In this document: piece by piece, positions 19,584-57,940 of the stretch | How the letters are laid out: the number at the start of each line of letters is the position of its first letter | Numbering within the stretch: the stretch's first letter is position 1 | DNA from: an uncultured Woeseiaceae bacterium | GTDB lineage: Bacteria; Pseudomonadota; Gammaproteobacteria; Steroidobacterales; Woeseiaceae | Reading direction: 5' to 3' | NCBI GenBank assembly: GCA_964491485.1 | Contig: CAZBGV010000003.1 | Coordinates: forward strand, 4,878 to 68,877 | DNA: 64,000 nucleotides | Notes under the pieces: generated by a model | Databases searched by the model: none | The model's input: only the letters and a program-made list of their open reading frames with translations | Told to the model about the DNA's origin: nothing | Made by a program: the position numbers and the translations under genes

Positions 19584-19599
19584 CGGTACGGATATTGCA
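19584..19599 (+). promoter_or_regulatory. weak sigma54 -24/-12 candidate upstream of the HiPIP gene
   Basis: CGGTAC-GGATA-TTGCA. The GG-N10-GC spacing is correct, with one mismatch in the GGCAC core. The -12 element lies about 32 nt before the ATG. Confidence 0.35.
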
Positions 19600-19630
19600 G
19601 CGGCTGCTGGCGATACCAGCGGAGAAGGCG

Positions 19631-20119
19631 ATGAAAGCGATGAGCGGATCTTTGGACCGGCGGCATTTCCTCTGCCTGCTGGGCGGAGTCGCCGCGTCGT
19701 TGCCGTGGCTGCCGGGATGCACCCCTCCGGAGGAGGCCCAGCCGCCGCCGACCAACGATACGGATCCGCGCGACCAGGACGCCGACGAGCCGGCGCCGCC
19801 CGGGCAGTCGGCGAGCGAGCTCGGGCAGCAGCCCGGGCAGGCCGGCGGCCCGGATGCCGGGACCGGCGACACGGCGATGCTGCCGCATCTCGACGAGAGC
19901 GACACGATGGCGCAGGCGCTCGGTTACAAGCACGATGCGAGGCAGGTGAACGCGGAGCAGTTCCCGAGCCGCGCCGACCCCAAGAGCGCGAACGAATTCT
20001 GCAAGAACTGCGTGCACTTCCAGGGCCCGCCCGATCAGCAGTGGGCCCCCTGCACGATCTTCCCGGGCAAGCTCGTCAACGCTGACGGCTGGTGCAGCGC
20101 CTGGGCGGCGCAGACCTGA
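19631..20119 (+). CDS. high-potential iron-sulfur protein (HiPIP) with Tat signal, lipobox and long acidic/Pro linker
   Basis: DRRHF Tat motif, LPGC lipobox, and C-terminal CKNC..C..C (GWCSAW) HiPIP cysteines. GGAGAAGG lies upstream of the ATG. Confidence 0.85.
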   Translation: MKAMSGSLDRRHFLCLLGGVAASLPWLPGCTPPEEAQPPPTNDTDPRDQDADEPAPPGQSASELGQQPGQAGGPDAGTGDTAMLPHLDESDTMAQALGYKHDARQVNAEQFPSRADPKSANEFCKNCVHFQGPPDQQWAPCTIFPGKLVNADGWCSAWAAQT

Positions 20120-20139
20120 CACGCATCCCACGGTGGAGG

Positions 20140-20169
20140 CATGGCCGGGGGGGATGCCCGCCGGCCATG
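20140..20169. terminator. hairpin between convergent genes
   Basis: catggccgg-12 nt-ccggccatg, located between the HiPIP and amidohydrolase gene ends. Confidence 0.4.
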
Positions 20170-20191
20170 TCGCTGATAGGGAGTTGGTTGG

Positions 20192-21421
20192 TCAGCGTCG
20201 GGTATCGCTGACCTGCACGCCTTCGATCACCGTACCGACGGCGTGGCTCGTGTACTCGAACGGATCGCCGTCGTACAGCGCGAGGTCGCCGTCCTTGCCG
20301 GGCTCGAGCGAGCCGACGCGGTCCGCGACGCCGAGCAGTTTCGCCGCCTCGATCGTGAGGTGCGCGAGAGCCTGCTCGAACGTGAGGCCGTGCTGCAGCG
20401 TGATCGCCGCCTCGAACAGCACAACGCGCGTTTTTGGTACGTAGGACTCGAAGCCGCTCTGGAACGCGAACGGAATCCCGGCATCGCTGAGCTTCGCGGG
20501 TGTCGTGAAGGATATGTTCTCGAGCGGGCCGAATGCCCGCGCCATGCTCGGGTGCACGATCACCGGGACGCCCGCGGCACGGATCTCATCGACCACCAGG
20601 CAGGATTCCGCCGCGCCGTCGAGCACCAGGCGGATGTCGAACTCGTCCGCGATGCGCAGCGCGGTCACGATGTCCTGGTGGCGCTGTGCCGTGACCAGCA
20701 GCGGGATTTCTTTGCGCAGCACGCGGCCGAGCGCCTCCAGCGCGAGATCGCGCCCGCCGTTCTGCTTGTCGCCGGCGTCCGCTTGCCTTGCGAGGTATTC
20801 CTGGGCCTTGACGAGCTCGGTGCGCAGCATCGCCGCCGCCTTGCTGCGGTTGCCGGGTGAGGTGCGCCCGCTCTCACTGCCTTCCCCGACCACCGCGCCT
20901 TCACCCAGGGTCGCGGCGATCATCGCGAACGGCACCGTCACCGCGTCGCGGACCGTGTTGCCGGCGGTTTTCACGATCATGGTCTGGCCGGAAATGACCT
21001 CGCCCGGCGCATGCCCGGTGTGGACGGTCGTGATGCCGAAGCTGCGGAGCCAGGCGATGAGCGGCTCGTGCGGGTTGTACGCGTCGATCGCGCGAAGCTC
21101 CGGCTGGATCGCGGAGGAGTGCTCGATCTCGTCCTGATCCTCCGGCTGATTCAAATAGCCGGCAAGCCCGACCACCGAGTGCGCGTCGATGAGGCCCGGC
21201 GTCACCACGGCCGCCTCGAGGACCTCGACGCCGTCGGGGATGCGCACGTCCGCGGCCGGCCCGACGGCCGCGATCCGGCCGTCCTCGATCAGCACCACGC
21301 CGTTCCGGATCGGGGGCGCAGTAACGGGGTAAACCGTCTCGCCGCGTACGGCGATGTCCTGCGCGAGGGCCGTGCCGGCCAGCGCGAGCAGCGCCGCGCA
21401 CGGGGCCATCCGGGCGCTCAC
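20192..21421 (-). CDS. amidohydrolase family protein (secreted)
   Basis: Signal peptide and a VTPGLIDAHSVVG metal-binding region. Confidence 0.85.
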   Translation of the reverse strand: MSARMAPCAALLALAGTALAQDIAVRGETVYPVTAPPIRNGVVLIEDGRIAAVGPAADVRIPDGVEVLEAAVVTPGLIDAHSVVGLAGYLNQPEDQDEIEHSSAIQPELRAIDAYNPHEPLIAWLRSFGITTVHTGHAPGEVISGQTMIVKTAGNTVRDAVTVPFAMIAATLGEGAVVGEGSESGRTSPGNRSKAAAMLRTELVKAQEYLARQADAGDKQNGGRDLALEALGRVLRKEIPLLVTAQRHQDIVTALRIADEFDIRLVLDGAAESCLVVDEIRAAGVPVIVHPSMARAFGPLENISFTTPAKLSDAGIPFAFQSGFESYVPKTRVVLFEAAITLQHGLTFEQALAHLTIEAAKLLGVADRVGSLEPGKDGDLALYDGDPFEYTSHAVGTVIEGVQVSDTRR

Positions 21422-25675: not shown

Positions 25676-25691
25676 TGGCACGGAAGTTGCT
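25676..25691 (+). promoter_or_regulatory. sigma54 -24/-12 promoter candidate upstream of the BON-domain gene
   Basis: TGGCAC-GGAAG-TTGCT, about 60 nt before ATG 25753. Confidence 0.7.
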
Positions 25692-25752: not shown

Positions 25753-26562
25753 ATGGCACGGGAAGACGAGCGACGACGCGGGCCGGAGCGTGGCTGGCGC
25801 AGGGAGCGGGACCGCTGGTCGTCCGAGAGCGCCCGGCGCAGCGTGCGCGGCGACGACGAGAGCGGCAGCGAATACGAGGACGAGGAGCCCGGTCCGCCGC
25901 GCGCCTGGCGCAGCCAGCGCGTCGAGCGCCGCGAGTTCAGGCCTGACGAGCGCGGCCGCTACCGCGCCTCGGGCCGCCGCGACGATACCGGCTACGGCAA
26001 CGAGTGGCCCGAGGATCATCGCGGCGATTTCTCAGGCCAGCTGCCCGAGCGGGATCGCGACGCGTATTCGGAGCGCCAGTCCGGGCCGTATCGCAGCCCG
26101 GTCAGCGGCCGCCCCGTGAGCGAGGAACAGTATCGCCAGGAGGCGCACTGGCACCGCAGCGAGCCCTATACCGGGTTTTCCGGCAGGGTTTCCGAGTTCG
26201 GCTACGAGGATCCGACCTGGGCCGCGCCGCAGATGGGCCGGAGCGGCGGCGCCGCCGGGCGGCGCTTTCCGCCGCCCGGCAGCGGTTTCAGGGGCGTGGG
26301 CCCGCGCAACTACACGCGTTCCGACGAACGCATCCGCGAGGACGTCTGCGAGCAACTGGCGGAGGACGGCGCGGTGGACGCGAGCCACCTCGACGTCGAG
26401 GTCGAACAGGGGCGGGTGGTCCTGTCGGGCACCGTGCCGGAGCGCTACATGAAGCATCGCGCCGAGGACATCGCGGACGGCTGCCGGGGCGTGCAGGACG
26501 TCGAGAATCGCATTCGCGTCGAGCGGCCGCCGGCCGCGAGCCGCGAAGCCGGCGGGGAATAG
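25753..26562 (+). CDS. BON-domain protein with Arg/Glu-rich disordered N-terminal region
   Basis: AGGAGAG lies before the ATG. The C-terminus reads YTRSDERIREDVCEQL..VEVEQGRVVLSGTV..VENRIRV (BON). Confidence 0.8.
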   Translation: MAREDERRRGPERGWRRERDRWSSESARRSVRGDDESGSEYEDEEPGPPRAWRSQRVERREFRPDERGRYRASGRRDDTGYGNEWPEDHRGDFSGQLPERDRDAYSERQSGPYRSPVSGRPVSEEQYRQEAHWHRSEPYTGFSGRVSEFGYEDPTWAAPQMGRSGGAAGRRFPPPGSGFRGVGPRNYTRSDERIREDVCEQLAEDGAVDASHLDVEVEQGRVVLSGTVPERYMKHRAEDIADGCRGVQDVENRIRVERPPAASREAGGE

Positions 26563-29007: not shown

Positions 29008-29023
29008 TGGCACGCTTATTGCT
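29008..29023 (+). promoter_or_regulatory. sigma54 -24/-12 promoter candidate upstream of the 75-aa ORF
   Basis: TGGCAC-GCTTA-TTGCT, about 47 nt before ATG 29070. Confidence 0.65.
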
Positions 29024-29069: not shown

Positions 29070-29297
29070 ATGATCAAGCGCCTGAGCAAGGCCAGACGGA
29101 CGGCCATACTCGAGCACCTGCAGGCACTCGAAAGACAGATTCGTGAGGAGTTCGGGGAAGATCCGGGCTCCCGGCGCAACACCAGGCATTTGTCCGAGAG
29201 CGACCTGAGGTCCAGCCGTCCTCCCGCTCTCCAGGGAAGCGGCGCCGACGAGAGCCGCACCATCGCCAACGAGTTCACGGCGCGCTCCGTGCACTGA
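29070..29297 (+). CDS. hypothetical 75-aa hydrophilic protein
   Basis: Internal ATG of track ORF 28965..29297, preceded by AGAGAGGA. A sigma54 promoter lies upstream and a hairpin downstream. I recognise no family. Confidence 0.45.
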   Translation: MIKRLSKARRTAILEHLQALERQIREEFGEDPGSRRNTRHLSESDLRSSRPPALQGSGADESRTIANEFTARSVH

Positions 29298-29489: not shown

Positions 29490-29505
29490 TGGCACGGGAA
29501 TTGCT
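29490..29505 (+). promoter_or_regulatory. sigma54 -24/-12 promoter candidate upstream of the PRC-barrel lipoprotein gene
   Basis: TGGCAC-GGGAA-TTGCT, about 90 nt before ATG 29596. Confidence 0.7.
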
Positions 29506-29595: not shown

Positions 29596-30222
29596 ATGAC
29601 TAGCAAAGGACGTATGGCTATCTGGGCAGGCAGCGCGCTGCTCGCGTGGGGCATGCTCGCCGGCTGCGACACCGGCAACCAGAACCAGCAGGAGCCCGCC
29701 GCGCCGGCCAGTGAGAGCGACTCGGGCGACAACATGGCCATGTACGAGCCCGGCGACAAGGCGAACGACCAGGCCGGCAACGCCGAGGACACCTACGGCA
29801 GCCCGTCGACGGCCAACCCGCCCGGGGCAACGGGGCAGGCCGATTCCGGGACGGGCGCCGGGCAGACACAGCAGCCCGGCATGGGCGCAGGCGCGGGCGC
29901 CAGTCTCGAGAGCATGGCCGCCGACCAGATCGTCGGCAAGACGATCGTCAGCCGCCAGGGCGAGGAGATCGGCGAGGTGAACGACGTCGTGACCGATCCG
30001 ACCAGCGGCCAGAAGTTCGCCGTGGTGGATGTCGGCGGTTTTCTCGGCGTGGGCCAGAAGAGCATCGTGATCGGGCTGGACGAGCTGCAGATGAGCACCA
30101 CGGGTGGCGGCGACCGCCTGCAGAGCGACCTGACGCGCGAGGAGCTCCAGACCAAGACCGAATACGCGCCGGAGGATTACAAGTCCCTGACCGGTAAGAG
30201 CGGGCAGGATACGACGCAATGA
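29596..30222 (+). CDS. PRC-barrel domain lipoprotein
   Basis: Lipobox LAGC, a low-complexity acidic linker, and C-terminal IVGKTIVSRQGEEIGEVNDVV..FAVVDVGGFLGVG (PRC barrel). Confidence 0.75.
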   Translation: MTSKGRMAIWAGSALLAWGMLAGCDTGNQNQQEPAAPASESDSGDNMAMYEPGDKANDQAGNAEDTYGSPSTANPPGATGQADSGTGAGQTQQPGMGAGAGASLESMAADQIVGKTIVSRQGEEIGEVNDVVTDPTSGQKFAVVDVGGFLGVGQKSIVIGLDELQMSTTGGGDRLQSDLTREELQTKTEYAPEDYKSLTGKSGQDTTQ

Positions 30223-30351: not shown

Positions 30352-30696
30352 ATGAGCACAGGACCGGAAGACGTATCCCCGGACGGCGGCGGCAATGCCG
30401 CCGATACGCGCCGCACCCGCACGCGTTCCACCGAGCCGAAAGCCACCGAGCAGGCCGCCAGTCTCGCCCACGAGGCCGTGGACCGCGTGGCCGAAACGGC
30501 GGCGAAGGCGGAGGAGCGCATCCGCGAGGCGGCGCTCGCGAGCGAGGAACGCCTGCGCGAGAAAGGCGAAGAGGCCCGCGTCACCGCCGACCGCCTGCTC
30601 GACCACATGCGCCAGTACACCCGGGACAACCCGTTCGCGGCCGCCGGCATCGCGTTCGCTGCCGGAATGATTCTTTCCCGGCTGCTGAGGCGATAG
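30352..30696 (+). CDS. DUF883 (YqjD/ElaB-like) membrane-anchored stress protein
   Basis: 114 aa with a helical N-terminus and a C-terminal NPFAAAGIAFAAGMILSRLL anchor. GGAGGGGAG lies before the ATG. Confidence 0.85.
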   Translation: MSTGPEDVSPDGGGNAADTRRTRTRSTEPKATEQAASLAHEAVDRVAETAAKAEERIREAALASEERLREKGEEARVTADRLLDHMRQYTRDNPFAAAGIAFAAGMILSRLLRR

Positions 30697-30731
30697 TGTC
30701 CCGTCCGGCAGCGCTCTGAAGCCGGCCACGC

Positions 30732-31154
30732 ATGCCAGCCGGCCCGGTCAACGGCGCTGAGCGGCGCGATCCGGAACGCCAGCAGCCGGGCGCCGGCGAG
30801 CCCCCCGATTCGTTTCTCGCGGACGTGCGCGCCGCGGCCGATGCCGCCGTCGCGCACGCGCGCGCCGTAGCGGCGACCGCCGCCGCGGAGGCGCGCCTGT
30901 CGGTCGCCTCGGCCACCGCCCTGGCGGCCGTGGCCGTGGCCGCCCTCGCGTTCGTGCTCGTGGCCTGGATCTGCCTGCTCGCGCTCGGCATGTGGCTCGC
31001 CGTGCAGGCCGGCGCGCCGGTCTGGAGCGCCCTGGCCGGCGCCGTGGTCGTGAACCTGGCGGGCGTCCTGGCGTGCCGGATGTGGATCGCGAGGCTGATA
31101 CCCAACCTCGGGTTCGCGCGCACGCGCAACCTGCTTGGCAAGGCGGAAGGATGA
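30732..31154 (+). CDS. YqjE-like (DUF1469 / holin-X-like) inner-membrane protein
   Basis: 140 aa with two TM helices. Its position after the DUF883 gene matches the E. coli yqjD-yqjE-yqjK order. Confidence 0.65.
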   Translation: MPAGPVNGAERRDPERQQPGAGEPPDSFLADVRAAADAAVAHARAVAATAAAEARLSVASATALAAVAVAALAFVLVAWICLLALGMWLAVQAGAPVWSALAGAVVVNLAGVLACRMWIARLIPNLGFARTRNLLGKAEG

Positions 31155-31498
31155 TGGGCCTCGGCCGGCTGAAGCGTGAGGCGGACGCGCTGGCGGCTCA
31201 GGGCGTGCGGCTCGCCGCCGCCCGCGACCGGCACGCGCAAAGCAGCCTCGCGCGGGCCGGGACGGCGCTCTCGTCGCCGGCGGCGCTCGCGATCGTGTTC
31301 GCTGCCGGATTCGTCCTGGGCGCCCCGCGCACGCGGCCGCGGGGAACGCGCGACGATCACGCAGCGGAGGCCGGAAGCGGTGACGGCCGGATCGGCCGCT
31401 GGCTCGCCGGGCCGGTCGGGACACTGGCGCTGAAAGCGGCGTTTGCCCTCCTGGGCGCGGCGGGTGCCCCGGCCCGGGAGGTCCCTCCGGCCGGGTGA
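31151..31498 (+). CDS. YqjK-like small membrane protein
   Basis: ATGA overlap with the upstream gene. 115 aa with one central TM helix. Confidence 0.5.
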   Translation: MMGLGRLKREADALAAQGVRLAAARDRHAQSSLARAGTALSSPAALAIVFAAGFVLGAPRTRPRGTRDDHAAEAGSGDGRIGRWLAGPVGTLALKAAFALLGAAGAPAREVPPAG

Positions 31499-31531: not shown

Positions 31532-33130
31532 TCAGGCGTGACTCGCCTCCGGCTCGAGCGTGAAATAGAACGCCGCGCCCTCGCCGGGGCGGCTTTCCGC
31601 CCAGATCCGTCCGTCGTGGCGGCGCACCACCCGCACCGCGATGTTCAGCCCGAGCCCGATGCCGTCTTCCTGCGAGTTGCCTCGCTCTTCGCGCTCGAAG
31701 GCGCGGAACAAGCGCTCGGCGGAGTCCCCGTCGAAGCCGATTCCGTTGTCGCGCACGAAATACACGGGCACGCGCCGGTCCTGCTCGCAGCCCACCTCGA
31801 CGCGGCGGCAATCCCGGCTGCGGGTGTACTTGAGCGCGTTGCTCAGGAGATTCAGTGCCAGCGTCCTCACGAGCTTCGGGTCCGCGTGCGCGGCCGGCAG
31901 GTCGGCGAGCGCCAGCTCGACCGCCGGCGGCGGCTCGGAGGCGGCCAGCTCGTCGAAAATGTCCCGGACCATCTCCGTCAGGTCGACCCGCTCGCGCCGG
32001 AACGTGGCGTGGGAAACGATCGAGAGGCCGAGCAGCCGGTCGAGGATCTCCGTCATCCGCTTGACGGCAGTGCCCGTGCGCTCGAGCGCGGTCAATCCGT
32101 CGGGGCCGAGGACGTCGCCGAACTGCTGCGCGAGCAGCTGGGTGTTGACGGAAATGGAATTGAGCGGGTTCCTGAGATCGTGTGCCACGGAATCCGTGAT
32201 GGTGCCGAGGTCGGCGGAGCGATCGGCGAGCTCTTTCGTGCGTTCCGCGATCTCGCGCTCGAGATTGCGGTTGAGCACGGCAAGCTCGTGCTCGGCGATC
32301 TCTGCCGCCCGCGCACGCTCCCGGGCGCGCCGGTTCTCCAGCACGAGCAGCCCGACGAGCGCGGCGATCGCGAAGCCCGAAAACAGCAGTGCGGTCAGGC
32401 CGCGCACCGACATCACGTCCTCGAGCTCTCCCGTGGGCGTCAGTGCGACCTGCCACAGCGTCTTGCTCGTGGGGCGCACGACGCCGGTCGTGGTCGGCGC
32501 GCCGGGAAGATCGTGCGCCGGCTCGCCGCGCCGGTAGAGGCGCATGCCGTCCCAGCGCACCTCGACCGAATATCCGGGCGACACGTCACGCAGCATCGCG
32601 GCGAAGGATCGGGAAGCGTCCACGACGGCGACGAACATGCCGTGAGCATCGACCATGTACACCTGGTAGATCGGGTTACCGGCGGCATCCTCGAACGGAC
32701 CGAGGATCTCCTCACCCCGCAGGCGGCGGGCGCGCTCGAGCAGCGGGCCGGCAATCTGCAGGTCCTCTGATGTCGGCGCGTGGTCCAGCTCGGGATGCCC
32801 GGGCGTGCGCGCGTACTGCACGCCGTGCACCGCATCGCTCCAGAAAACGAGATCGATACCTTCCAGGTGCAGCGGCTCGAGATGCACGTCGGTCGCCCAT
32901 TGATCGCGCGGCAGGTGGCCGTACGTCGCCCAGTAGCGGTGCAGGCTGCGCAGCGTGCCGAGCATCAGCTCGAGATTGCGGGCAAGCTGGCTGCGCGCGG
33001 CCTGCGACTCGGAAGCGACGATTCGCGCGTTCTGCGCCCGGTAATCGTTCTCGAGTATTTTCCACGTTGCGAGCGTGGCCGCGGCGATGACCAGCGTCGC
33101 CGCCACGCTGATGGCGATGTGTCTCGGCAA
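31532..33130 (-). CDS. sensor histidine kinase with periplasmic sensor domain
   Basis: Two TM segments flank a sensor domain of about 250 aa. H-box SVAHDLRNPLNSI and the HATPase N/G boxes (NLLSNALKYT, DNGIGF, GIGLGL) are present. No in-frame ATG exists, so the start was tentatively set at a TTG (aa 301 of the track ORF). Confidence 0.8.
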   Translation of the reverse strand: MPRHIAISVAATLVIAAATLATWKILENDYRAQNARIVASESQAARSQLARNLELMLGTLRSLHRYWATYGHLPRDQWATDVHLEPLHLEGIDLVFWSDAVHGVQYARTPGHPELDHAPTSEDLQIAGPLLERARRLRGEEILGPFEDAAGNPIYQVYMVDAHGMFVAVVDASRSFAAMLRDVSPGYSVEVRWDGMRLYRRGEPAHDLPGAPTTTGVVRPTSKTLWQVALTPTGELEDVMSVRGLTALLFSGFAIAALVGLLVLENRRARERARAAEIAEHELAVLNRNLEREIAERTKELADRSADLGTITDSVAHDLRNPLNSISVNTQLLAQQFGDVLGPDGLTALERTGTAVKRMTEILDRLLGLSIVSHATFRRERVDLTEMVRDIFDELAASEPPPAVELALADLPAAHADPKLVRTLALNLLSNALKYTRSRDCRRVEVGCEQDRRVPVYFVRDNGIGFDGDSAERLFRAFEREERGNSQEDGIGLGLNIAVRVVRRHDGRIWAESRPGEGAAFYFTLEPEASHA

Positions 33131-33243
33131 GTGGCCACGCTCTTTTGCAACGGGGTCTTGTAAAATTGTCCGGTGCGTTCGCTGCGCGGTCAACCGACGG
33201 CGATCGGCGACATACGCTGCACGCTCCGCTCTGCGCCGCGTGC

Positions 33244-35406
33244 TCAACCGGTGAGCGCCGCCGGTTGGAAGCGCGATTCGATCAGGTCCGCGAGGTCGAC
33301 GGGCGAAACGGGCTTGACCAGGTATTCGTCGAAGCCCGCCTCCGTCGCCTGCCGGCGGGCGTCGCGGCTGCTGTAGCCGGTGAGGGCGACGAGCAGCATG
33401 CGCTCGCCGCCGGTGTGCGCGCGCAGCCGTCGCGCAACCTCGAATCCGTCGTACTGCGGTAACCCGATGTCGATGATCGCCGCGTCGGGCTGGACTTCGT
33501 CCGCGACGGCGATGCCCTCGAGACCGTCCGCGGCGGCAAACGTGCGGAATCCGTAATGCCGCAACACGGTCGACAGCGCGTGCCGCGCATCCTCGTTGTC
33601 CTCGATCAGCAACACTTTCCTGAGCTCGCGAACCTCCAGCGGACCGGTCTCCGGGGCCTGCGCTTCCGCTTGCGGCGCGGGGATCGCGGGGAAGCGGATG
33701 ACGAAGCGCGCGCCCTGGTCCCTGCCGCGGCTTTCCGCCGTGACGGTGCCGTTGTGCAGCTCGGCGAGCCGCTTGACGAGCGTGAGTCCGATGCCGAGGC
33801 CGCCGACGCTGCGGTCGATGGAACGCTGGCCCTGCACGAAGAGATCGAAGATGCGCGGCAGGAGCTCTTCCGGGATGCCGATGCCGGTGTCCGCCACCAC
33901 GAGCTGCGCCTCGCCGTCCTGCTCGCGCACCTCGACGCGAATCGTGCCGCCGGGCGCGGTGTATTTGGCCGCGTTCTCCAGCAGGTTCGAAGCAATCTGC
34001 TCGATGCGCGCCTGGTCGCCCTGGATCCACACCGGCGCCGTATCGAGCTCGAGCGCGAGCTTGGCGAAGACCGACGTGCGCTTCAGGTCGCGCGCGACTT
34101 CCGTGACGACGTGACCCAGATCGAGCGGTGCGAGCTTCAGGCGTACCTTTCCCGACGTGGCGCGGCCGACATCGAGCAGGTCGTCGACGATGCGCGTCAT
34201 GTGCTCCACCTGCCGCGAGACGATGGACACGGCATCGCCGGACGCGCGGCTCCCCGCCGCCCGGGCATTCAGGACCTGGGTCGCGGACGTCAGTGCGCCC
34301 AGCGGGTTGCGCAGCTCGTGCCCGAGCATGGCCAGGAACTCGTCCTTGGCGCGATCGGCGGCACGCAGGCGCTCTTCGCGCTCGCCCACGGCGCGGGCCG
34401 AGGCGACCAGCGCACGGCTGACGTCGCGCACTTCGCGCACCGCCGCGCCGGTGGGCGGCATCGGCTGCGTGCCGCGACCGAGCGCCTTGGCGGCGGCCGC
34501 GAGCTGCATCATCGGGTCGGCGATGCGCCGGCTGAAGCCGGCGGCGAGCGTGGCGGCGATCAGCACGGCGAACAGCAGGCCGACGGCGAGCAGGACGATC
34601 GTGTGCTCGGTGATCGCATCCACATCGGCCGCGGGAATCGCCATGGCGACCGTCCAGCCGCTGCGCGCGGAGCGGCTGTAGGGAGAGTAGATCTCCGCCC
34701 CGCCCCGGCTGGTGGTGTAGCGCAGCCAGCCTTCATTGGACGTTGCGAGCGCGCGGTCGAGCGTGCGCGCGAGCTCCTCGCCGGCGGCGGATGTATCGGC
34801 CCAGGTGCCGGCAACGATCTCACCGTTCTGGTCGAGCACGACGGCCACCCAGTCGCGCTGCAGGCGCTGCGGGGTGAGCAGGTCGAGGATGGAGCGTGCA
34901 TCGACCAGCACGCCCAGTACGAACACCTCGCCGCTCACCTCGACCGGCACGCTGATCGGGAAGAAGCGCTCGCCGTCGATCACGGTGACTCCACCGATGG
35001 TCGGCGCCCTCGTCCTGAGCGTGCGGTCGATGCCCGAGCGGTCCACCGATTGCAGCGCGCTCTCCGGCGATCTCGAGACGGTGAGCACGTGCTCACCGGA
35101 AGGCAGAGACAGCGTCAGCAGCCCCCAGTGCGTATGCATGGGCAGCAGGCGTTTCGACTGGCGGTGAAAAGCGCCGAGGTCGCCGCTCTGCAGGTCATAT
35201 GACGTCCCGAGCGCCTGCAGGCCGGTGACGTGTCCGTTGAGCTCCGTATCGACGGCCGTCAGGAGCGCGAGCGTGCGTTCGCGGGCGCCACGCTCGAACG
35301 CGCTGCGCTCACGGTCCGCCACCCAGAGCGTCGTCGCGACGCCGAAGACGGACACCGGCAGCAGGACGGCCAGCGTGAGTACCAACAAGTGAGTGCGGAG
35401 CTTCAT
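33244..35406 (-). CDS. hybrid sensor histidine kinase / response regulator (Cache-like sensor, HAMP, HisKA, HATPase, REC)
   Basis: 720 aa. H-box MLGHELRNPLGAL, an HATPase domain, and a C-terminal receiver (VLLIEDNED..DIGLP..VKP). Confidence 0.9.
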   Translation of the reverse strand: MKLRTHLLVLTLAVLLPVSVFGVATTLWVADRERSAFERGARERTLALLTAVDTELNGHVTGLQALGTSYDLQSGDLGAFHRQSKRLLPMHTHWGLLTLSLPSGEHVLTVSRSPESALQSVDRSGIDRTLRTRAPTIGGVTVIDGERFFPISVPVEVSGEVFVLGVLVDARSILDLLTPQRLQRDWVAVVLDQNGEIVAGTWADTSAAGEELARTLDRALATSNEGWLRYTTSRGGAEIYSPYSRSARSGWTVAMAIPAADVDAITEHTIVLLAVGLLFAVLIAATLAAGFSRRIADPMMQLAAAAKALGRGTQPMPPTGAAVREVRDVSRALVASARAVGEREERLRAADRAKDEFLAMLGHELRNPLGALTSATQVLNARAAGSRASGDAVSIVSRQVEHMTRIVDDLLDVGRATSGKVRLKLAPLDLGHVVTEVARDLKRTSVFAKLALELDTAPVWIQGDQARIEQIASNLLENAAKYTAPGGTIRVEVREQDGEAQLVVADTGIGIPEELLPRIFDLFVQGQRSIDRSVGGLGIGLTLVKRLAELHNGTVTAESRGRDQGARFVIRFPAIPAPQAEAQAPETGPLEVRELRKVLLIEDNEDARHALSTVLRHYGFRTFAAADGLEGIAVADEVQPDAAIIDIGLPQYDGFEVARRLRAHTGGERMLLVALTGYSSRDARRQATEAGFDEYLVKPVSPVDLADLIESRFQPAALTG

Positions 35407-35521
35407 TCGTCCTGGCCGGAAGCCGGATGCCGTCCGGCGTGCCTGTTTGCCCTCCGGGCGGCCGTGGCGGTGGCGGCCGGGGCGCTGGTGCGGCGGGTGA
35501 GCACCGCGGCGAGGCCACGCT

Positions 35522-35704: not shown

Positions 35705-35896
35705 CGGCCTCGATCTCCTGCCGCCGCCCGCACGCCGGGCAGCGGTAAAAAGTGCCCAGGCTTGTAAACATTATCCGCCGCCGCCGGCCGGCACGGATGG
35801 CAGGCATACCGGGCCCCGCCGGCATTGCACCGCCCCGCGGGTGCCGGCGGCGTCGGCGCCAATCACGCCGCGGCAGGGCCGCCTGGCCATGCCGTT

Positions 35897-35912
35897 TGCA
35901 AGTCCCGTACCA
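35897..35912 (-). promoter_or_regulatory. sigma54 -24/-12 candidate directed toward the small TM ORF and the hybrid HK
   Basis: The minus strand reads TGGTAC-GGGAC-TTGCA. Confidence 0.5.
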
Positions 35913-35949
35913 GCCCCGGCCGATCCCGCCCGCGGCGGCCGGCGGCAAT

Positions 35950-41646: not shown

Positions 41647-42033
41647 ATGATTTGCGCCCCGAAAACGCTGACACTCGCGGCCGTCGCCTGCCTTGCCGCG
41701 GCCTGCGGGAGCACGCCCGAGCGCCCCGTGGAAGACCTGGCCCGTGCCGAAGCCGGCATCCGCCAGGCGGAACAGGGCGGCGCCGAGCGCTACGGCGCGA
41801 TGGAGCTCCAGGGCGCGCGCGACAAGCTCGAGCGCGCGCGGACGGCGGCCGACGACGGGGAGATGGCAGAGGCCGAGCGCCTCGCTGAAGAGGCGGCGCT
41901 GGACGCCGATCTCGCGGCGGCCAAAACGCGCAGCCGCAAGGCCCAGGTCGCGGTTCGGCAGGTCGAGGACAGCATCGCGATGCTGCGCGAGGAGATCCAG
42001 CGCGGCCGCACGCAGCCAGGAGAAATGCCATGA
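41647..42033 (+). CDS. DUF4398-like lipoprotein
   Basis: Lipobox LAAAC and a helical body (ELQGARDKLERARTAADDGEMAEAERLAEEA). ATGA overlap with the next gene. Confidence 0.7.
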   Translation: MICAPKTLTLAAVACLAAACGSTPERPVEDLARAEAGIRQAEQGGAERYGAMELQGARDKLERARTAADDGEMAEAERLAEEAALDADLAAAKTRSRKAQVAVRQVEDSIAMLREEIQRGRTQPGEMP

Positions 42034-42953
42034 AAGCGGCGATTGCGGCGGTCTCCGGCTGCCTGGCGCTGCTCGCGGCGGGCTGCGCGACGACCCCCGA
42101 GAGGGTGCCGGAGCTCGACCAGGCGCGCGCGACGGTGCGCCAGCTCGAGGCAGAGGACGCGGCGGGCACGGTAGCGGCGGAGTCGCTGTCGAGCGCGCGC
42201 CAGGCCTTGGCCCGCGCCCAGACGGCGCAGGACGAGGGCGAGCCGCTGCCCGTCATCCGGCACCAGGCGTATCTCGCGCGGCGGCATGCGGAGATCGGCC
42301 TCGAGACGGTGGGCGAGGCCAAAGCCATGGAAGAGGTCCGGACGGCGGAAGCGCGGCGCCGGGAGCTGCAGCTCGAGGCGCGTACCATGGAGGCGCGCCG
42401 CGCCGAGATGCGGGCACAACGGCAGGCCCGGCAGGCGCGCCAGGAACGCTCGGCGGCAGCGGCCTCGCGCCAGGAAGCGCTGGCGGCGCAACAGGAGACG
42501 GAACGCCTGCAGCAGGAGCTCTCCGATCTCCAGGCAGAGCAGACCGCGCGCGGCATCGTGCTGACGCTCGGCAACAACGTCCTGTTCGAAACCGACAGCG
42601 ACGAGCTCAAGCCCGGCGCGGAACGCTCCATGGACCAGCTGGCCGCCTTCCTCGAGGAACATCCCGAACGGCGGCTCATGATCGAGGGCCATACCGACTC
42701 GCGGGGCACCGAAGCGCACAACCGCGACCTGTCCGAGCGCCGCGCCGAGGCCGTCGCGGAGGCATTGGAGGAGCGGGGCATCCCCGACGGGCGGCTGCAG
42801 CCGGTCGGGCTGGGCGAGGGGTACCCGGTGGCGAGCAACGCGAGCAGTGCCGGGCGCCAGCAGAACCGGCGGGTCGAGGTCGTGATCTCGGACAAGGAAG
42901 GCCGGTTTCCCGAGAACGCGCGGCGCACGGTCGCGCGGCAGAGCAGCGGCTGA
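42030..42953 (+). CDS. OmpA-family lipoprotein with DUF4398-like N-terminal and coiled-coil region
   Basis: Lipobox LAAGC. The C-terminus reads VLFETDSDELKP..IEGHTDSRGTEAHNRDLSERRA..NRRVEV (OmpA_C). Confidence 0.9.
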   Translation: MKAAIAAVSGCLALLAAGCATTPERVPELDQARATVRQLEAEDAAGTVAAESLSSARQALARAQTAQDEGEPLPVIRHQAYLARRHAEIGLETVGEAKAMEEVRTAEARRRELQLEARTMEARRAEMRAQRQARQARQERSAAAASRQEALAAQQETERLQQELSDLQAEQTARGIVLTLGNNVLFETDSDELKPGAERSMDQLAAFLEEHPERRLMIEGHTDSRGTEAHNRDLSERRAEAVAEALEERGIPDGRLQPVGLGEGYPVASNASSAGRQQNRRVEVVISDKEGRFPENARRTVARQSSG

Positions 42954-48158: not shown

Positions 48159-49220
48159 GTGACCGGATCCGACGACGATACGGCGCTCACGCGCACCGTT
48201 GCCAGCACGGCGACCTTGAAGCTGGCCAGCCTGCACTCCATCGACCCTTTCTATACGCCGCTCGAGGAACGCTTCGAGCGCATCACCCGCCTGGCCCGCC
48301 GCGCCCTCAAGGTGCCGATCGCCGCGATCACCGTGGTGCAGGACGACCGGCAGTGGTTCAAGTCGATCGCGGGGCTGGCGCTCACGGAGCTGGCGCTCGA
48401 CAAGAGCCTGTGCGTGCCGGTGCTGAAAGAGGGCCGCCCGGTCATCGTCCCCGATACCCGGCTCGAGCTCGACCTCATGTCCAAACCGCTGGTGTGCGGC
48501 AATCCCGGGATCCGCTTCTACGCCGGCGCGCCGATCCGCAACGCGGACGGCAATACCATCGGGACCTTCTGCGCCATGGACGTCCGGCCGCGCACGCCCG
48601 ACGACGATTTCCGCACGATCCTGGTCGACCTGGCCGACATGGCGCAGCGCGAGCTCTTCTCCGTCGAGCTGCGCAACGCGCAGTCCGCGCTGGTCTCCAA
48701 GCTTGGCAAGGCACGGCGCCAGGCGATGTTCGATTCCCTGACGCGCCTGTGGAACCGCCGCGGCGGGATCGAGCTTTTGGACTCCGCCCTGAAAGAGGCG
48801 ACGCGCTACAACCACACGCTCGGCATCTGTCTCGCCGACATCGACAACTTCAAGCAGATCAACGACCAGTTCGGGCACCAGGTCGGGGACCAGGTGCTGC
48901 GGCGCGCGGCCGGCGGCATCGTCGCCTCCGTGCGGCCGCAGGACATCGTCTGCCGGTACGGCGGCGAGGAGTTCCTCGTCATCGTGCACGACGTGAACGA
49001 GACCGGGCTGGTCGCCGTCGGCGAGCGGATCTGCGCGGGGATGCGCAAGCTCGCCATCAGCCTTTCCGGCGAGCCGCTGCCGGCGACCATCAGCGTGGGC
49101 GTGGCGCTGCGCGCGCGCGACCAGTCCATCGGCGCCGACGAGCTGATCGCGCGCGCCGACCGTGCGCTGTACGCCAGCAAGCGCGCCGGGCGCGACCGCG
49201 TCACCGTGGGCCGGGAATAG
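48159..49220 (+). CDS. GAF-domain diguanylate cyclase (GGDEF)
   Basis: GAF-like N-terminus, DSLTRLWNRRG, and an intact RYGGEEFLV site. A GTG start was chosen (GGGAAGA upstream), but the start is uncertain. Confidence 0.85.
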   Translation: MTGSDDDTALTRTVASTATLKLASLHSIDPFYTPLEERFERITRLARRALKVPIAAITVVQDDRQWFKSIAGLALTELALDKSLCVPVLKEGRPVIVPDTRLELDLMSKPLVCGNPGIRFYAGAPIRNADGNTIGTFCAMDVRPRTPDDDFRTILVDLADMAQRELFSVELRNAQSALVSKLGKARRQAMFDSLTRLWNRRGGIELLDSALKEATRYNHTLGICLADIDNFKQINDQFGHQVGDQVLRRAAGGIVASVRPQDIVCRYGGEEFLVIVHDVNETGLVAVGERICAGMRKLAISLSGEPLPATISVGVALRARDQSIGADELIARADRALYASKRAGRDRVTVGRE

Positions 49221-49300
49221 GGGTCGAACCGATTTTTCGCTGGCGCCAACCGGGAACCCGGGGGGTGAACCTTCGCCAGCGAAAAATCGGTTCGACCCCT
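49219..49300. repeat. 27-bp perfect inverted repeat (28-nt loop) between convergent genes
   Basis: aggggtcgaaccgatttttcgctggcg ... cgccagcgaaaaatcggttcgacccct. The outer imperfect arms gggaatagggg/cccctattccc include both stop codons. Confidence 0.8.
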
Positions 49301-49316
49301 GTTCCTCCCCTATTCC

Positions 49317-51388: not shown

Positions 51389-51484
51389 GCTGGTAACCCC
51401 GCTGTCATAGTTCGAAAGAAACCGTAGACCGGTGGCTTTGCGGCCCTTCCTTTCGGAAAGGTGTGCCTTTTTCAGTGCCGGGGA
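51389..51484 (-). promoter_or_regulatory. c-di-GMP-I (GEMM-I) riboswitch candidate
   Basis: The minus strand reads CCCCGGCACUGAAAAAGGCACACCUUUCCGAAAGGAAGGGCCGCAAAGCCACCGGUCUACGGUUUCUUUCGAACUAUGACAGCGGGGUUACCAGC-AUG. The conserved blocks GGCA(A/C)ACC, a GAAA-capped stem, CGCAAAGCC, CCGG and AGCGGGGUUACC occur in the order and spacing of the Vc2 aptamer as I remember it. Confidence 0.75.
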
Positions 51485-55031: not shown

Positions 55032-55151
55032 TCGGCAGACATTGCTCGTTCGGTATCGGCTCTCCGGCAAGTTTTTCAGCCCCGCTTGCAAATATTACAA
55101 GTCGCGTCGCACGTGCCGCGCGCGGCGTTCGCCCGGTATTTCCGCGCTGCG

Positions 55152-55167
55152 TGGCACACTTGTTGCA
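55152..55167 (+). promoter_or_regulatory. sigma54 -24/-12 promoter candidate upstream of the atypical EBP and USP genes
   Basis: TGGCAC-ACTTG-TTGCA, about 220 nt before ATG 55386. Confidence 0.6.
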
Positions 55168-55385
55168 GCCCGCAGCACCGGGATCGACCGCCCGTCCGAC
55201 CCGCTGCGCACCGACCCGTCCGGAGCGTGCCCAGGACATCAGGGAGCAATCGCCAGGAACGGAGGATCTGCATCTCGCAGAAGCACGACGATGACGTCTT
55301 CGATCGTCGCGCCGCACCAGCATCTTCTTCATCCGCTCGACGAGCTCGCCCGGCCGGGTGGGCGCCCGTCGCGCGAAATCCGCGA

Positions 55386-56372
55386 ATGAACGTGCACAGG
55401 AACGCCGCAACGGAGCTTGCAGGCTCCTCCGGCAACGGCGGCACCGCGCCGCCCACGGAGGAAGGTTTCGGACTGCTGGTCGGCCATTCCGATGCCATGC
55501 GCCGGCTCTACGAGCAGATCCGCGAGTGCGCACCCACGGACGACAGCGTTTTCCTGATCGGTGAGGCCGGCTCCGGAAAGGAACGGGTCGCGCGCACGAT
55601 CCACCAGCAGAGCCGGCGCTCGCACGCGGAGTTCGCGCCGTTGTACTGCGGTGCCCTGTCGCCGGAACTGCTGGAGAGTGAGCTGTTCGGCGACGCGAAG
55701 CCGGGTTTCGGTGTGGCGAGCCGCGAGGGCACGGGTCACCTGCAGCGCGCCGCGAATGGCACCCTGTTCCTGGACGACATCACCGAAATGAACGCCGGCC
55801 TGCAGGCGCGCCTGCTGCAGGTGCTCGAGACGCGCGGCGCGGAGCCCGCGACGCGCATCATCGCCGCCACGAGCATGGATCCCGAGGAGGCGGTGGAGCG
55901 AGGCCGCCTGAACGATGCGTTGTATCGACGCCTCGCGCAGTACCTCATCCGCGTGCCCACGCTGCGCGAGCGCAACGACGACGTGATTCTGCTCGCCGAG
56001 CACTTCCTTGCCGAGCGTAATGCCGAGACCGGTATCGTCAAGCAGTTCACCGAGGGCGCGCGCGACGCGCTCAGGGCCCACGACTGGCCGGGCAACGTGC
56101 GCGAGCTCAAGGAAGCCGTGCGCCACAGCCACCTGCTCGCGGCCGGCACGATCAGGATCGAGGATCTCCCGGGGCGCGTGTCGTCGGCCGGGCCCGGCGA
56201 CGAGGACTACATTCGCGTGAACGTGGGGACGCCGCTGTCCGAAGTCGAGCGGCGCACTATCCTCTCGACGCTCGAGCACTACGACGGCGACAAGAAGAAG
56301 GCGGCGGACACGCTGCGCATCAGCCTGAAGACGCTCTATAACCGGCTGAAGCAATACAACCACCGGCGCTGA
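55386..56372 (+). CDS. sigma54-activator-like AAA+ transcription regulator lacking a receiver domain, with a degenerate GAFTGA loop
   Basis: GEAGSGKE Walker A, LFLDDITE Walker B, RIIAATS, and a Fis-type HTH (LRISLKTLYNRL). GAFTGA is replaced by PGFGVA. The start is uncertain because the ATG has no clear SD. Confidence 0.8.
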   Translation: MNVHRNAATELAGSSGNGGTAPPTEEGFGLLVGHSDAMRRLYEQIRECAPTDDSVFLIGEAGSGKERVARTIHQQSRRSHAEFAPLYCGALSPELLESELFGDAKPGFGVASREGTGHLQRAANGTLFLDDITEMNAGLQARLLQVLETRGAEPATRIIAATSMDPEEAVERGRLNDALYRRLAQYLIRVPTLRERNDDVILLAEHFLAERNAETGIVKQFTEGARDALRAHDWPGNVRELKEAVRHSHLLAAGTIRIEDLPGRVSSAGPGDEDYIRVNVGTPLSEVERRTILSTLEHYDGDKKKAADTLRISLKTLYNRLKQYNHRR

Positions 56373-57325
56373 TGGCCAACGTCAAGACGATCCTGGTCGA
56401 CGTCGAGCTCCGTGAGGGAGAGCATCCCGAGCTCATGCGCGCCGGGGAGCTCGCGGCGGCGTCCGGCGCGCGCGTGTTTCTCCTGCTCTCGGCTTTCGAC
56501 TCGTCGCTTGCCGGCGGCCGCCTCCCGGACGCGCGGCGCGTCGGGGCGCTGCGCGAGCGCTGGCTCGCGGAGCTTGCGACCTGGCTGGCCGGGCAGGCAC
56601 GGGTGCTCGAAGCCGTGGGTATCGACACCGAAAGCGCGGTCGCCTGGCATTCGCCGCGCTACGACGCGGTGCTGGCGCGCGCCGCGGAGCTCGAGGCCGA
56701 CGTGATCGTGCGCGCCGCGCACCGCGAAACGGCCGTCGGCCGTTTCCTGTTCGGCGCCGCGGACTGGGAGCTGGTGCGCCGCGCTCCGCAACCGGTCTGG
56801 ATCGTGCGCCGCGGGAAGGGCCTTCGCGAGCGGGGAGCCCGCGTGCTCGCGGCAGTGGACCCCGCGCATCCCGGCGAGCAGAAGGCCGGCCTCGACCGGC
56901 GCCTGTTGAGCGCCGGGCAGCGCATCGTGAATCTTTTCGGCGGCGAGCTGCACATCTTCCACGCCTATCGTCCGGCGACCGCCGTGGCCCCGGTCGCGGC
57001 GACCGGACACCAGGCGGCGCTGCCGGCGCTCGCGGTCGGTCCCGAGATCATCGAGGAGCTGCGCGCCCTGCGCCGGGCGGAGCTCTGCGCGCTCGCGAAG
57101 CCCTTCGGAGTACCCGAGGACCGCATCCACCTGGTGGCGGGCGAAACGAAAAGCGCGCTCCTCGAGCGGGTCGACGCGCTCGGCATCGACGTGGTGCTCG
57201 CGGGAGCCGTCGCGCGCGGCCGTATCGAGCGCCTGCTGATCGGCAGCACGGCGGAGCGCATCCTCGATGCCGTGCCCTGCGACGTGGTCGTGCTGAAGCC
57301 GGAAGCGTTCCCGGACACCGCCTGA
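56372..57325 (+). CDS. tandem universal stress protein (UspE-like)
   Basis: 317 aa with two USP domains (ADVIVRAAH.. and DVVLAGAVARGRIERLLIGSTAE). The start overlaps the EBP stop (TGATG). Confidence 0.9.
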   Translation: MANVKTILVDVELREGEHPELMRAGELAAASGARVFLLLSAFDSSLAGGRLPDARRVGALRERWLAELATWLAGQARVLEAVGIDTESAVAWHSPRYDAVLARAAELEADVIVRAAHRETAVGRFLFGAADWELVRRAPQPVWIVRRGKGLRERGARVLAAVDPAHPGEQKAGLDRRLLSAGQRIVNLFGGELHIFHAYRPATAVAPVAATGHQAALPALAVGPEIIEELRALRRAELCALAKPFGVPEDRIHLVAGETKSALLERVDALGIDVVLAGAVARGRIERLLIGSTAERILDAVPCDVVVLKPEAFPDTA

Positions 57326-57354
57326 GGAGTCGCCGTCCGGCGGCGCGGGCGGCG

Positions 57355-57852
57355 TCAGCCGTGGTCGGGGAAATCGATCTTTGCGTGCCGGCCCTGGTCC
57401 TCGTCGAGGGTGTTCCCGGTGGCGAGCGCCCTGGCCGCGTCGAACATGAAGCGCACCGCTTCGACGCCGGAGCGGTCCCAGTATTCGGCGTAAGTCGGCA
57501 CGACCTCGAGCAGGATCAGCGTCGGGTCGTTGCGCCCTTTCGGGAACCAGAGCTCCTGGACCTCGTTCCACAGCGCGTTGATGCGCTCCGGATCGCGCGT
57601 GGCGCGGACCGTGCCGGAGATCGAGAGGAACGTGGAGCGGCCCTGCATGGCGAGGTTGACGAACGGCTCGTCGGTGATCTCCTCGAGCTTGCCGCTGTCC
57701 ACGCTCGTGATGAACCAGACGTGGCCGTCTTCGGTCGCATCGGCGATCGCCATCGGCCGCGAGCGCAGCTCCGCATCCCGGCGCGTCACGAGCATGGCAT
57801 GCTCGAAGGATTTCAGCACGTCGACGAATTCGTGCTCGCGTTGACCGTTCAT
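57355..57852 (-). CDS. pyridoxamine 5'-phosphate oxidase-like / general stress protein 26 family
   Basis: 165 aa starting MNGQREHEF, with HAMLVTR..LRSRPMA..VWFIT..YAEYWD. GGAGG lies before the ATG. Confidence 0.8.
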   Translation of the reverse strand: MNGQREHEFVDVLKSFEHAMLVTRRDAELRSRPMAIADATEDGHVWFITSVDSGKLEEITDEPFVNLAMQGRSTFLSISGTVRATRDPERINALWNEVQELWFPKGRNDPTLILLEVVPTYAEYWDRSGVEAVRFMFDAARALATGNTLDEDQGRHAKIDFPDHG

Positions 57853-57891
57853 TCGACCTCCTGTCGCACGGCGGGTACATTTTTGGCATTT

Positions 57892-57907
57892 TGCAAGCAT
57901 CGTGCCA
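57892..57907 (-). promoter_or_regulatory. sigma54 -24/-12 promoter candidate upstream of the GSP26-like gene
   Basis: The minus strand reads TGGCAC-GATGC-TTGCA, about 40 nt before ATG 57852. Confidence 0.7.
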
Positions 57908-57924
57908 CGACGGGTTGCCCGCGC

Positions 57925-57940
57925 TGGCACGCCGAATGCA
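57925..57940 (+). promoter_or_regulatory. sigma54 -24/-12 candidate upstream of the secreted Cys-containing protein gene
   Basis: TGGCAC-GCCGA-ATGCA, about 36 nt before ATG 57976. Confidence 0.5.

Follow-up and report, generated by a model that had tools for sequence, protein, structure and literature searches.

Can a general stress response be run from enhancer-dependent sigma-54 promoters? General stress responses are textbook cases of control by the sigma-70-family factors RpoS, SigB and EcfG, and the question is raised here by a stretch of 64,000 nucleotides (the window, by which we mean the whole stretch) from contig CAZBGV010000003.1 of an uncultured Woeseiaceae bacterium. Woeseiaceae are among the most abundant marine-sediment bacteria and have a cultured representative in Woeseia oceani. 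A first-pass annotation had described 13 -24/-12 elements in the window and had read them as sigma-54 promoters of one possible regulon of small stress-type genes. Families associated with envelope, osmotic or oxidative stress are encoded in the window (BON, DUF1328, entericidin, PRC, DUF883-like, USP, GSP26-like and OmpA-like) and in its relatives (CsbD, Pmp3, catalase, KGG and manganese catalase). The proposal that the boxes are genuine promoters of one regulon is supported by the conservation of the boxes in relatives, by an upstream activating sequence (UAS) that most of them share and by a syntenic activator gene of the NtrC type, encoding the enhancer-binding protein (EBP) that we call EBP1. 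We put at roughly 0.7 the probability that the window holds a conserved island of genuine sigma-54 promoters forming an EBP1-dependent regulon of stress-type genes.

The consensus TGGCAC-N5-TTGC is matched exactly eight times in the window, whereas dinucleotide-preserving shuffles lead to an expectation of 0.12 and 0 of 100 shuffles reached a count of eight, which bears out the rarity claimed earlier (about 0.1 expected). Since spurious open reading frames (ORFs) abound at 69% GC, genes were called by a codon-bias model and their starts were corrected by reading the sequence. All eight exact boxes fall in intergenic DNA, which makes up 15.5% of the window (P ~3e-7), and all eight agree with the extended sigma-54 consensus in carrying a purine after TGGCAC and an A or T after TTGC. 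The GG-N10-GC spacing is held by 13 of 13 boxes (eight exact, four with one mismatch and one with two), all of which are intergenic and aimed at a start codon 30-219 nt past the GC of the -12 element (40-219 nt for the exact ones), in agreement with the 30-220 nt given in the first-pass annotation. Five of the coordinates reported there (35950, 40219, 41438, 57892 and 35897) were off by one and the rest were right, and every gene label was confirmed by Pfam. Along the window these labels read HiPIP, BON, PRC, REC-GGDEF, EBP, DUF1328, REC, entericidin, DUF4398, DUF4398-OmpA, EBP, tandem USP, Pyrid_ox_like and DUF6491. The boxes, which span 38 kb, and the genes that they precede are as follows, with distances counted in nt from the -12 GC to the start codon.

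19584-19598, plus strand: weak box CGGTACGGATATTGC with two mismatches, 32 nt before the HiPIP start codon
19631-20119, plus strand: gene for a high-potential iron-sulfur protein (HiPIP; PF01355, E=1.9e-21) with a Tat-type signal
25676-25690, plus strand: exact box, 62 nt before the BON-domain (OsmY-like) gene at 25753-26562
29008-29022, plus strand: exact box, 47 nt before a 75-aa ORF at 29070-29297, which has no Pfam match
29490-29504, plus strand: exact box, 91 nt before the PRC-barrel lipoprotein gene at 29596-30222
30352-31498: trio of DUF883-like genes, following the PRC-barrel gene
35898-35912, minus strand: variant box TGGTACGGGACTTGC, facing the sensor operon, 193 nt from its first ORF
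35949-35963, plus strand: exact box, 84 nt before the REC-GGDEF gene at 36048-36980
40220-40234, minus strand: exact box, 61 nt before the DUF1328 gene
39770-40158, minus strand: operon of DUF1328 (YtjA-like, 39991-40158) and acidic lipoprotein (39770-39976) genes, with a terminator at 39674-39645
40381-40395, plus strand: box TGGCATCCTTCTTGC, 30 nt before the single-domain REC gene at 40426-40869
41439-41453, minus strand: exact box, 56 nt before the entericidin-like gene at 41215-41382, which has a terminator at 41106-41079
41595-41609, plus strand: box TGGCACGCTTTGTGC, 37 nt before an operon of DUF4398 (41647-42033) and DUF4398-OmpA (42030-42953) genes
55152-55166, plus strand: exact box, 219 nt before the gene for a second enhancer-binding protein, EBP2
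57893-57907, minus strand: exact box, 40 nt before the GSP26-like (Pyrid_ox_like) gene at 57355-57852
57925-57939, plus strand: box TGGCACGCCGAATGC, 36 nt before the DUF6491 gene at 57976-58380, back to back with the box at 57893

The boxed genes form small transcription units delimited by their own terminators. One terminator lies between a superoxide dismutase (SOD) gene and the DUF1328 operon; we rejected the SOD gene as a member of the regulon, as it has neither box nor UAS and this terminator cuts it off from the operon. For an empirical background we took 80 activator-containing loci from other bacteria (1.34 Mb), which hold 0.62 exact boxes per 64 kb; the density in the window is 13-fold higher than in these loci.

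Imperfect boxes behave differently. With up to one mismatch allowed the window holds 13 matches against 4.0 expected, i.e., five one-mismatch matches against about 3.9, and with up to two mismatches it holds 56 against 62.6; one- and two-mismatch boxes are, as a class, no commoner than chance. The five imperfect boxes have the spacing and orientation reported earlier, but because they are not enriched as a class each of them needs other support. For most this is provided by conservation in relatives. The box at 19584 has as its sole support a strong UAS 60 nt upstream, and the box at 57925, with neither conservation evidence nor a UAS, is the least supported of all and is left without independent support. 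A further one-mismatch match at 37111 (plus strand) was rejected as a promoter, being the start codon of the EBP1 gene (ATGGCAC...) at which relatives keep no box.

The chance-level count of two-mismatch matches is what could be cited for regarding the whole cluster as an artefact of composition or of repeats (a mobile element or dispersed repeat, for instance) that does not act as a set of promoters. We consider this effectively refuted, as the count of eight exact boxes lies beyond every shuffle, all boxes are intergenic and oriented toward genes, and genomes that differ in GC content have boxes at the orthologous positions. No repeat family extends over the boxes either; the sequence that they share is only the 15-mer of the box and the 13-mer of the UAS.

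Conservation was assessed in eight relative contigs (L085-L092) from public metagenome-assembled genomes labelled Woeseiaceae or Woeseia, whose EBP1 orthologs are 90, 89, 83, 81, 74, 69, 66 and 62% identical to that of the window. A common gene order can be followed through them (PRC, the DUF883-like trio, the kinases, REC-GGDEF, EBP1, a small H-box protein, SOD, the lipoprotein, DUF1328, REC, entericidin, DUF4398-OmpA, bactofilins, NDH-2 and malic enzyme), with strong synteny in L085-L088 and thinner synteny in more distant relatives. These neighbourhoods add CsbD, Pmp3, catalase, MgtC and YflT-like genes and more PRC and BON genes, and the EBP1 orthologs, at 62-93% identity, always lie among PRC, BON, CsbD, DUF1328, entericidin, DUF4398-OmpA, SOD, catalase and DUF883 genes. 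The GC content of the relatives is 57-67% and the flanking DNA has diverged, yet boxes, exact or with one mismatch, recur before orthologous genes in L085-L091. In all, 11 of the 13 boxes (those other than 19584 and 57925) have a counterpart before the orthologous gene in at least one relative. The boxes of the PRC and DUF1328 genes are each kept in six relatives (L085-L090), that of the REC-GGDEF gene in five (L085-L088 and L090), that of the entericidin gene in four (L085-L088) and that of the 75-aa ORF in three (L085 at 1186, L086 at 1840 and L087 at 2170). The single-domain REC gene is preceded by a box in four relatives (L085 at 13325, L086 at 13076, L087 at 13883 and L088 at 13643), where it reads exactly TGGCAC versus TGGCAT in the window. 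The minus-strand variant at 35898 is kept as TGGTA[C/T]GGGA[C/A]TTGC, facing the sensor operon, in L085-L088, each of which holds five to six exact boxes within 14-21 kb. Relatives also carry an extra box before DUF883-like genes. The box of the EBP2 promoter is found again in two further contigs (L093 at 6130 and L094 at 9575), and the GSP26 ortholog of L093 is preceded by TGGCATGACACTTGC.

The DUF4398 box is kept in four relatives (L086 at 14295, L087 at 15150, L088 at 14976 and L091 at 6276). In every genome that has it, the -12 element of this DUF4398-OmpA promoter departs from the consensus ([G/A/C]TGC versus TTGC), which suggests a deliberately weak or tuned promoter.

Do the boxes share more than their core? 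A recurrent A/T-rich element was first seen by reading upstream regions, and a blind Gibbs sampler, applied to 39 regions upstream of all exact boxes in the window and its relatives, found a 13-bp palindrome, TG[T/C]AA-N3-TT[G/A]CA. A position weight matrix (PWM) built from the relatives only gave, at a threshold of 12 bits, 10 sites in the window, all of them intergenic; shuffling led to an expectation of 0.8 for the whole window and of 0.3 for intergenic DNA alone. The sites, which are mostly paired at 18-21 bp from centre to centre, are listed below without strand.

19518-19530: UAS palindrome TGCAAGTTTTACC, 18.6 bits
28922-28953: UAS pair TGCAGGAATTACC and GGCATTTTTTTCA, 19 bp apart, conserved in L085, L086 and L087
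29416-29446: UAS pair TGACAACTTTACA and GGCAAGAATTACC, 18 bp apart, conserved in L085-L090
35744-35775: UAS pair, 186-205 nt upstream of the plus-strand box at 35949 and downstream of the minus-strand box at 35898
40300-40331: symmetric UAS pair GCACTATTTACA-N7-TGTAAATAGTGC, common to the divergent boxes at 40220 (minus) and 40381 (plus), conserved in L085-L090
41520-41532: UAS palindrome GGTAAGAGTTACA with flanking TGCAAAAATGA, common to the boxes at 41439 (minus) and 41595 (plus), a conserved island in alignment A4
55066-55099: best-scoring UAS pair, GGCAAGTTTTTCA and TGCAAATATTACA, 21.6 bits, at the EBP2 promoter

Ten of the 13 promoters are accompanied by the UAS. At eight (19584, 29008, 29490, 40220, 40381, 41439, 41595 and 55152) it is centred 50-91 nt upstream of the -24 box, and two (35898, minus, and 35949, plus) have the distal pair, an arrangement likewise kept in L085-L088; divergent promoter pairs have one symmetric UAS set in common. 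Alignment A4, which covers the region between the entericidin and DUF4398 genes in five genomes, has a mean column identity of 55%, and its invariant columns cluster in the entericidin-side box and the central UAS. The DUF4398-side box is present in four of these five genomes (L085 has none within one mismatch) and was placed in register by MAFFT in only three. Across the relatives, a UAS was found at 39 of 63 boxes and a box at 48 of 72 UAS matches; the boxes that lack a UAS are mostly one-mismatch matches, many of them within genes.

As the UAS elements are A/T-rich islands in 69% GC DNA, and as the pair upstream of the PRC gene and an orphan site at 33159 overlap sigma-70-like hexamers, we asked whether sigma-70 or sigma-S promoters, or binding sites of a nucleoid protein such as IHF, would explain them, which would put the genes under dual or conventional control and make the boxes secondary. 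This is very unlikely. The sigma-70 pattern occurs at only two of nine UAS loci (the eight assigned ones and the orphan), and a sigma-70 reading of the pairs was rejected on this count. The elements are palindromic, with invariant G and C positions and a fixed spacing of 18-21 bp within pairs, and their distance from the -24 box is constant, both being conserved together. IHF sites were rejected as well, since the IHF consensus is asymmetric, unlike the palindrome, and the CAA-N3-TTA of the latter is one base short of the CAA-N4-TTR spacing. Palindromic and off the IHF spacing, the element is read as an activator site.

The orphan belongs to a UAS-like pair, ACAATTTTACA-N7-TTGCAAAAGAG, at 33140-33172 on the minus strand, just upstream of the gene for the second kinase of the sensor operon. 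The hexamers that its site at 33159 overlaps are a TTGACC-17-GACAAT match, and no -24/-12 box is recognisable downstream of the pair.

Which protein would bind these sites? The candidates and the genes around them are the following.

31532-35704, minus strand: sensor operon of a 60-aa membrane protein (35522-35704), a dCache hybrid histidine kinase (33244-35406) and a second kinase (31532-33106), with conserved synteny
37110-38429, plus strand: EBP1, REC-AAA+(GSFTGA)-HTH_8 (PF00072; PF00158, E=1.4e-65; PF02954)
38446-38676, plus strand: 76-aa stand-alone DHp/H-box protein, starting 17 nt after EBP1, conserved in L085-L088
55386-57325, plus strand: EBP2 (55386-56372; PF00158, E=3.3e-42; PF02954) and a tandem-USP protein (56372-57325)

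In all eight relatives, even at 62% identity, EBP1 and no other activator gene keeps its synteny with the regulon. EBP1 looks competent, with a GSFTGA loop, a DE Walker B motif and a full-length L2 insertion, and we propose it as the likely activator, and putative master regulator, of the boxes. Its own promoter side shows a TATACT -10-like box, not a sigma-54 box. The 76-aa protein has an invariant H-box-like motif, ALHK[M/L]NNALNSISMQAELA (i.e., ALHK[M/L]NNALNSIS), and may link the hybrid kinase to EBP1 by histidine phosphotransfer. Judging from the sensor operon, its box and this small protein, an autoregulated phosphorelay into EBP1 is plausible.

The first-pass annotation had counted two activator genes in the window. 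This holds for EBP1; it does not hold for EBP2, in whose clade the loop that contacts sigma-54 has decayed. EBP2 comprises AAA+ and HTH_8 domains without a REC domain. In alignments with ZraR, NifA and its own homologs, its L1 loop reads PGFGVA instead of GAFTGA, about nine residues of the pre-sensor-I (L2) insertion are deleted and Walker B has DD instead of DE. The protein is not peculiar to this genome: REC-less orthologs at 60-93% identity form a clade in Woeseiaceae, all aligned members of which have a hypervariable or deleted L1 and retain Walker A and a near-identical helix-turn-helix (HTH). Without GAFTGA and L2 loops, EBP2 should not be filed as a competent sigma-54 activator. Because its loops have decayed, its HTH recognition helix equals that of EBP1 and its own promoter carries the best UAS, EBP2 is probably a modulator that acts by competition for the UAS or in mixed rings, and not an activator.

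Two observations concern the 219-nt leader of the EBP2 gene. It contains an upstream ORF of 32 codons (MTSSIVAPH...) at 55290-55388 on the plus strand, which overlaps the EBP2 ATG and looks like a fused N- and C-terminal remnant of a DUF1028 gene. In L093 the DUF1028 gene is intact (6212-6841), between promoter and EBP2; L094 has the same remnant as the window.

A REC-containing sister clade of EBP2 (62-65% identity), which we call EBP3, keeps the loop as GSF[T/Q/N/R]GA, has a very similar HTH and lies on the same contigs as EBP1 in two relatives. In three members from outside the window (P0145, P0176 and P0179) the normally invariant threonine of GAFTGA varies, giving GSFQGA, GSFNGA and GSFRGA, which hints at a relaxed or altered coupling to sigma-54 in this clade.

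All three proteins have the same recognition helix, ISLKTLYNRL, and the boxes could accordingly be real sigma-54 promoters whose palindrome is bound by EBP3, by EBP2 or by several activators splitting the set, with EBP1 controlling a part of it or something else. The strongest UAS of the window stands at the EBP2 promoter, where L093 has an identical pair and L094 an identical stronger site, and three boxes without a UAS imply at least one further activator. We nevertheless hold this to be unlikely, since EBP1 alone is syntenic with the regulon in every relative and EBP2, lacking GAFTGA, should not activate.

The UAS-less box of the BON gene has counterparts elsewhere. BON orthologs with the same disordered N-terminus, encoded on the metagenomic contigs L097, L104, L105 and L113, are preceded by a box 36-73 nt upstream of the ATG, and these contigs hold further boxes before genes for a KGG-repeat protein, a manganese catalase and a REC-like protein. 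The boxed BON genes of L097, L104 and L105 have a different conserved element, AAACTTTGCCGGTACAAATTCC (L097 at 7320-7345), some 50-70 nt before the box, which may be the enhancer of another activator. The manganese catalase of L097 is closest (80-84%) to proteins of Rhodanobacteraceae and other Xanthomonadales. An extension of the wiring to cultured Xanthomonadales was rejected, as the manganese catalase locus of Dyella jejuensis has no box in 20.9 kb. Boxes before BON, KGG and manganese catalase genes in an unrelated uncultured lineage hint that the wiring may have arisen more than once.

Several points weigh against an EBP1-dependent regulon. Imperfect boxes are at chance level as a class. 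The link between EBP1 and the UAS is one of synteny and co-conservation, which is association only, and EBP3 is an alternative binder. The count of boxes and UAS matches occurring together is partly circular, since the matrix comes from the same family of loci. In the PWM scan of the window no UAS was recognisable at 25676, 57893 and 57925, and the pair at 35744-35775 is oddly placed, at a long distance from one promoter and on the downstream side of the other. There is no rpoN gene in the window (nor is there an rpoS gene), and the intact GSFTGA loop of EBP1 is no more than an indirect sign of one. Finally, the general-stress role is taken from Pfam families only, and the response may have a more specific trigger, such as osmotic or envelope stress.

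With these points in mind, the EBP1 regulon might operate as follows. Sigma-54 RNA polymerase would wait at the boxes in closed complexes. The sensor module (hybrid kinase, second kinase and small membrane protein), whose operon has a sigma-54 box of its own for autoregulation, would phosphorylate the EBP1 receiver, possibly through the 76-aa H-box protein. Activated EBP1 would then bind the tandem palindromes, two sites about two helical turns apart, and form an ATPase ring whose GSFTGA loops would open the promoters. The output would comprise at least 10 compact transcription units, directed in part at envelope or membrane stress (PRC-barrel, DUF883-like, DUF1328, acidic lipoprotein, entericidin, DUF4398/OmpA and the 75-aa protein) and otherwise at signalling (REC-GGDEF, single REC and kinases), HiPIP and the EBP2-USP operon. 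EBP2, which has kept its ATP-binding site and HTH and lost the REC domain and the sigma-54-contact loops, would most likely modulate the response. The BON, GSP26-like and DUF6491 genes, whose boxes lack this UAS, may answer to another activator.

It is tempting to speculate that in Woeseiaceae enhancer-dependent sigma-54 has taken the place of a stress sigma factor in a general or osmotic stress response. A dozen or more small stress genes would be controlled by one NtrC-type activator, fed by a phosphorelay and binding a dedicated palindromic enhancer, and a REC-less paralog without GAFTGA, induced through the same enhancer, would serve as a brake or ring poison. We offer this joint reading tentatively, as a possibility that we would not yet call probable. 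If true, the stress response would stay strictly silent unless the activator hydrolysed ATP, a phosphorelay would gate it, competition among sigma factors would not touch it, and a conserved clade of degenerate enhancer-binding proteins would be wired into its parent regulon.

Some other features of the window may be recorded. Two ORFs (273 and 723 aa) overlap in a low-GC segment (about 55%) at 80-3069 on the plus strand; the larger has a DPPY methyltransferase motif, and the segment is probably a horizontally acquired restriction-modification system. The sole Rfam match in the window is a cyclic di-GMP-I riboswitch at 51389-51477 on the minus strand (75.7 bits), upstream of genes for a 475-aa protein with no Pfam match and a VWA-like protein of 215 aa; the window has four GGDEF or GGDEF-EAL genes, one of which (REC-GGDEF) is under a sigma-54 box. 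Adjacent to the regulon genes lies an ectoine cluster, in which a fused ectA-ectB gene at 59183-61093 on the plus strand (GNAT and class-III aminotransferase, 636 aa) is followed by ectC, ectD and ask and a MarR gene is divergent; the fusion is kept in L093. The ectoine promoter region was rejected as a member of the regulon, having neither sigma-54 box nor UAS. Between two convergent genes lies a 32-nt inverted repeat (49214-49305, 97% complementary, 28-nt loop) that is probably a bidirectional terminator.

Among known systems, the closest in architecture are NtrBC at glnAp2, ZraSR-zraP and GlrKR/QseEF, which likewise combine a REC-AAA+(GAFTGA)-HTH_8 activator with adjoining kinases and -24/-12 promoters. 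Tandem palindromic sites about 100 bp upstream of the start site and an autoregulated sensor operon are also shared with NtrC-family regulons. Unlike in NtrBC, ZraSR and GlrKR, the targets here are small proteins of the RpoS or SigB type rather than nitrogen, zinc or glmY functions, and NtrC-family systems differ further from a cluster of 13 boxes in 38 kb with additional phosphorelay parts (a hybrid kinase, a stand-alone H-box protein and a single REC protein). As far as the literature searched shows, the TG[T/C]AA-N3-TT[G/A]CA element is new. Sigma-54 was connected with the cell exterior in a comparative study (Francke et al., 2011, PMC3162934), and a survey based on position-specific scoring matrices found an enrichment of the USP family (COG0589), mainly in Planctomycetia (Carrera-Reyna et al., 2025, PMC12316311). 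Both link sigma-54 to the cell exterior and to stress, and neither covers Woeseiaceae, this UAS or a clustered RpoS-like stress regulon. The stress genes brought out by a metatranscriptome study of Woeseiales are not the ones found here, and our literature search found no paper on sigma-54 control of this gene set, nor on rpoN or rpoS in Woeseiaceae.

Like the Psp response, the system would be a sigma-54-dependent answer to envelope or membrane stress, and PspF and EBP2 both lack an N-terminal regulatory domain. PspF, however, has a functional GAFTGA and is restrained by PspA, whereas EBP2 is without GAFTGA and L2 and no pspA-like gene lies near it. Homologues without GAFTGA are found elsewhere among enhancer-binding proteins, for example TyrR and the NtrC of Rhodobacter capsulatus. 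VpsR of Vibrio cholerae (PMC6158489) and Caulobacter NtrC (PMC10274813) are two more, and EBP2 resembles them as an AAA+ and HTH protein without the residues that engage sigma-54. Both of these still have a sensory or REC domain, and the promoters at which they act are of the sigma-70 type, whereas EBP2 has no regulatory domain, stands behind a sigma-54 promoter with the UAS of the regulon and is co-transcribed with a USP gene.

What sets the locus apart is its gene content, its density of boxes, its dedicated enhancer and the degenerate paralog embedded in it; the box, the 13-bp enhancer and the candidate regulator are concrete, testable elements in an abundant, poorly studied sediment clade. 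In gene content the nearest counterparts are the regulons of RpoS in E. coli, SigB in Bacillus and EcfG-NepR-PhyR in Alphaproteobacteria, which draw on the same families. The RpoS regulon includes BON/OsmY, entericidin B, DUF883 (ElaB/YqjD), KGG (YciG) and catalase, with DUF1328 (YtjA) also counted; that of SigB includes GSP26 (YdaG), CsbD and manganese catalase (YdbD), and that of EcfG includes PRC-barrel and CsbD proteins. The promoters here are -24/-12 elements, not -35/-10, and sigma-70-like hexamers occur at only two upstream elements, so that the regulon does not belong to the stress-sigma class and appears instead to be a functional analogue of the RpoS, SigB and EcfG regulons. In those systems the availability of the sigma factor is set by proteolysis or partner switching, whereas the Woeseiaceae regulon would need an ATP-hydrolysing enhancer-binding protein to open its promoters.

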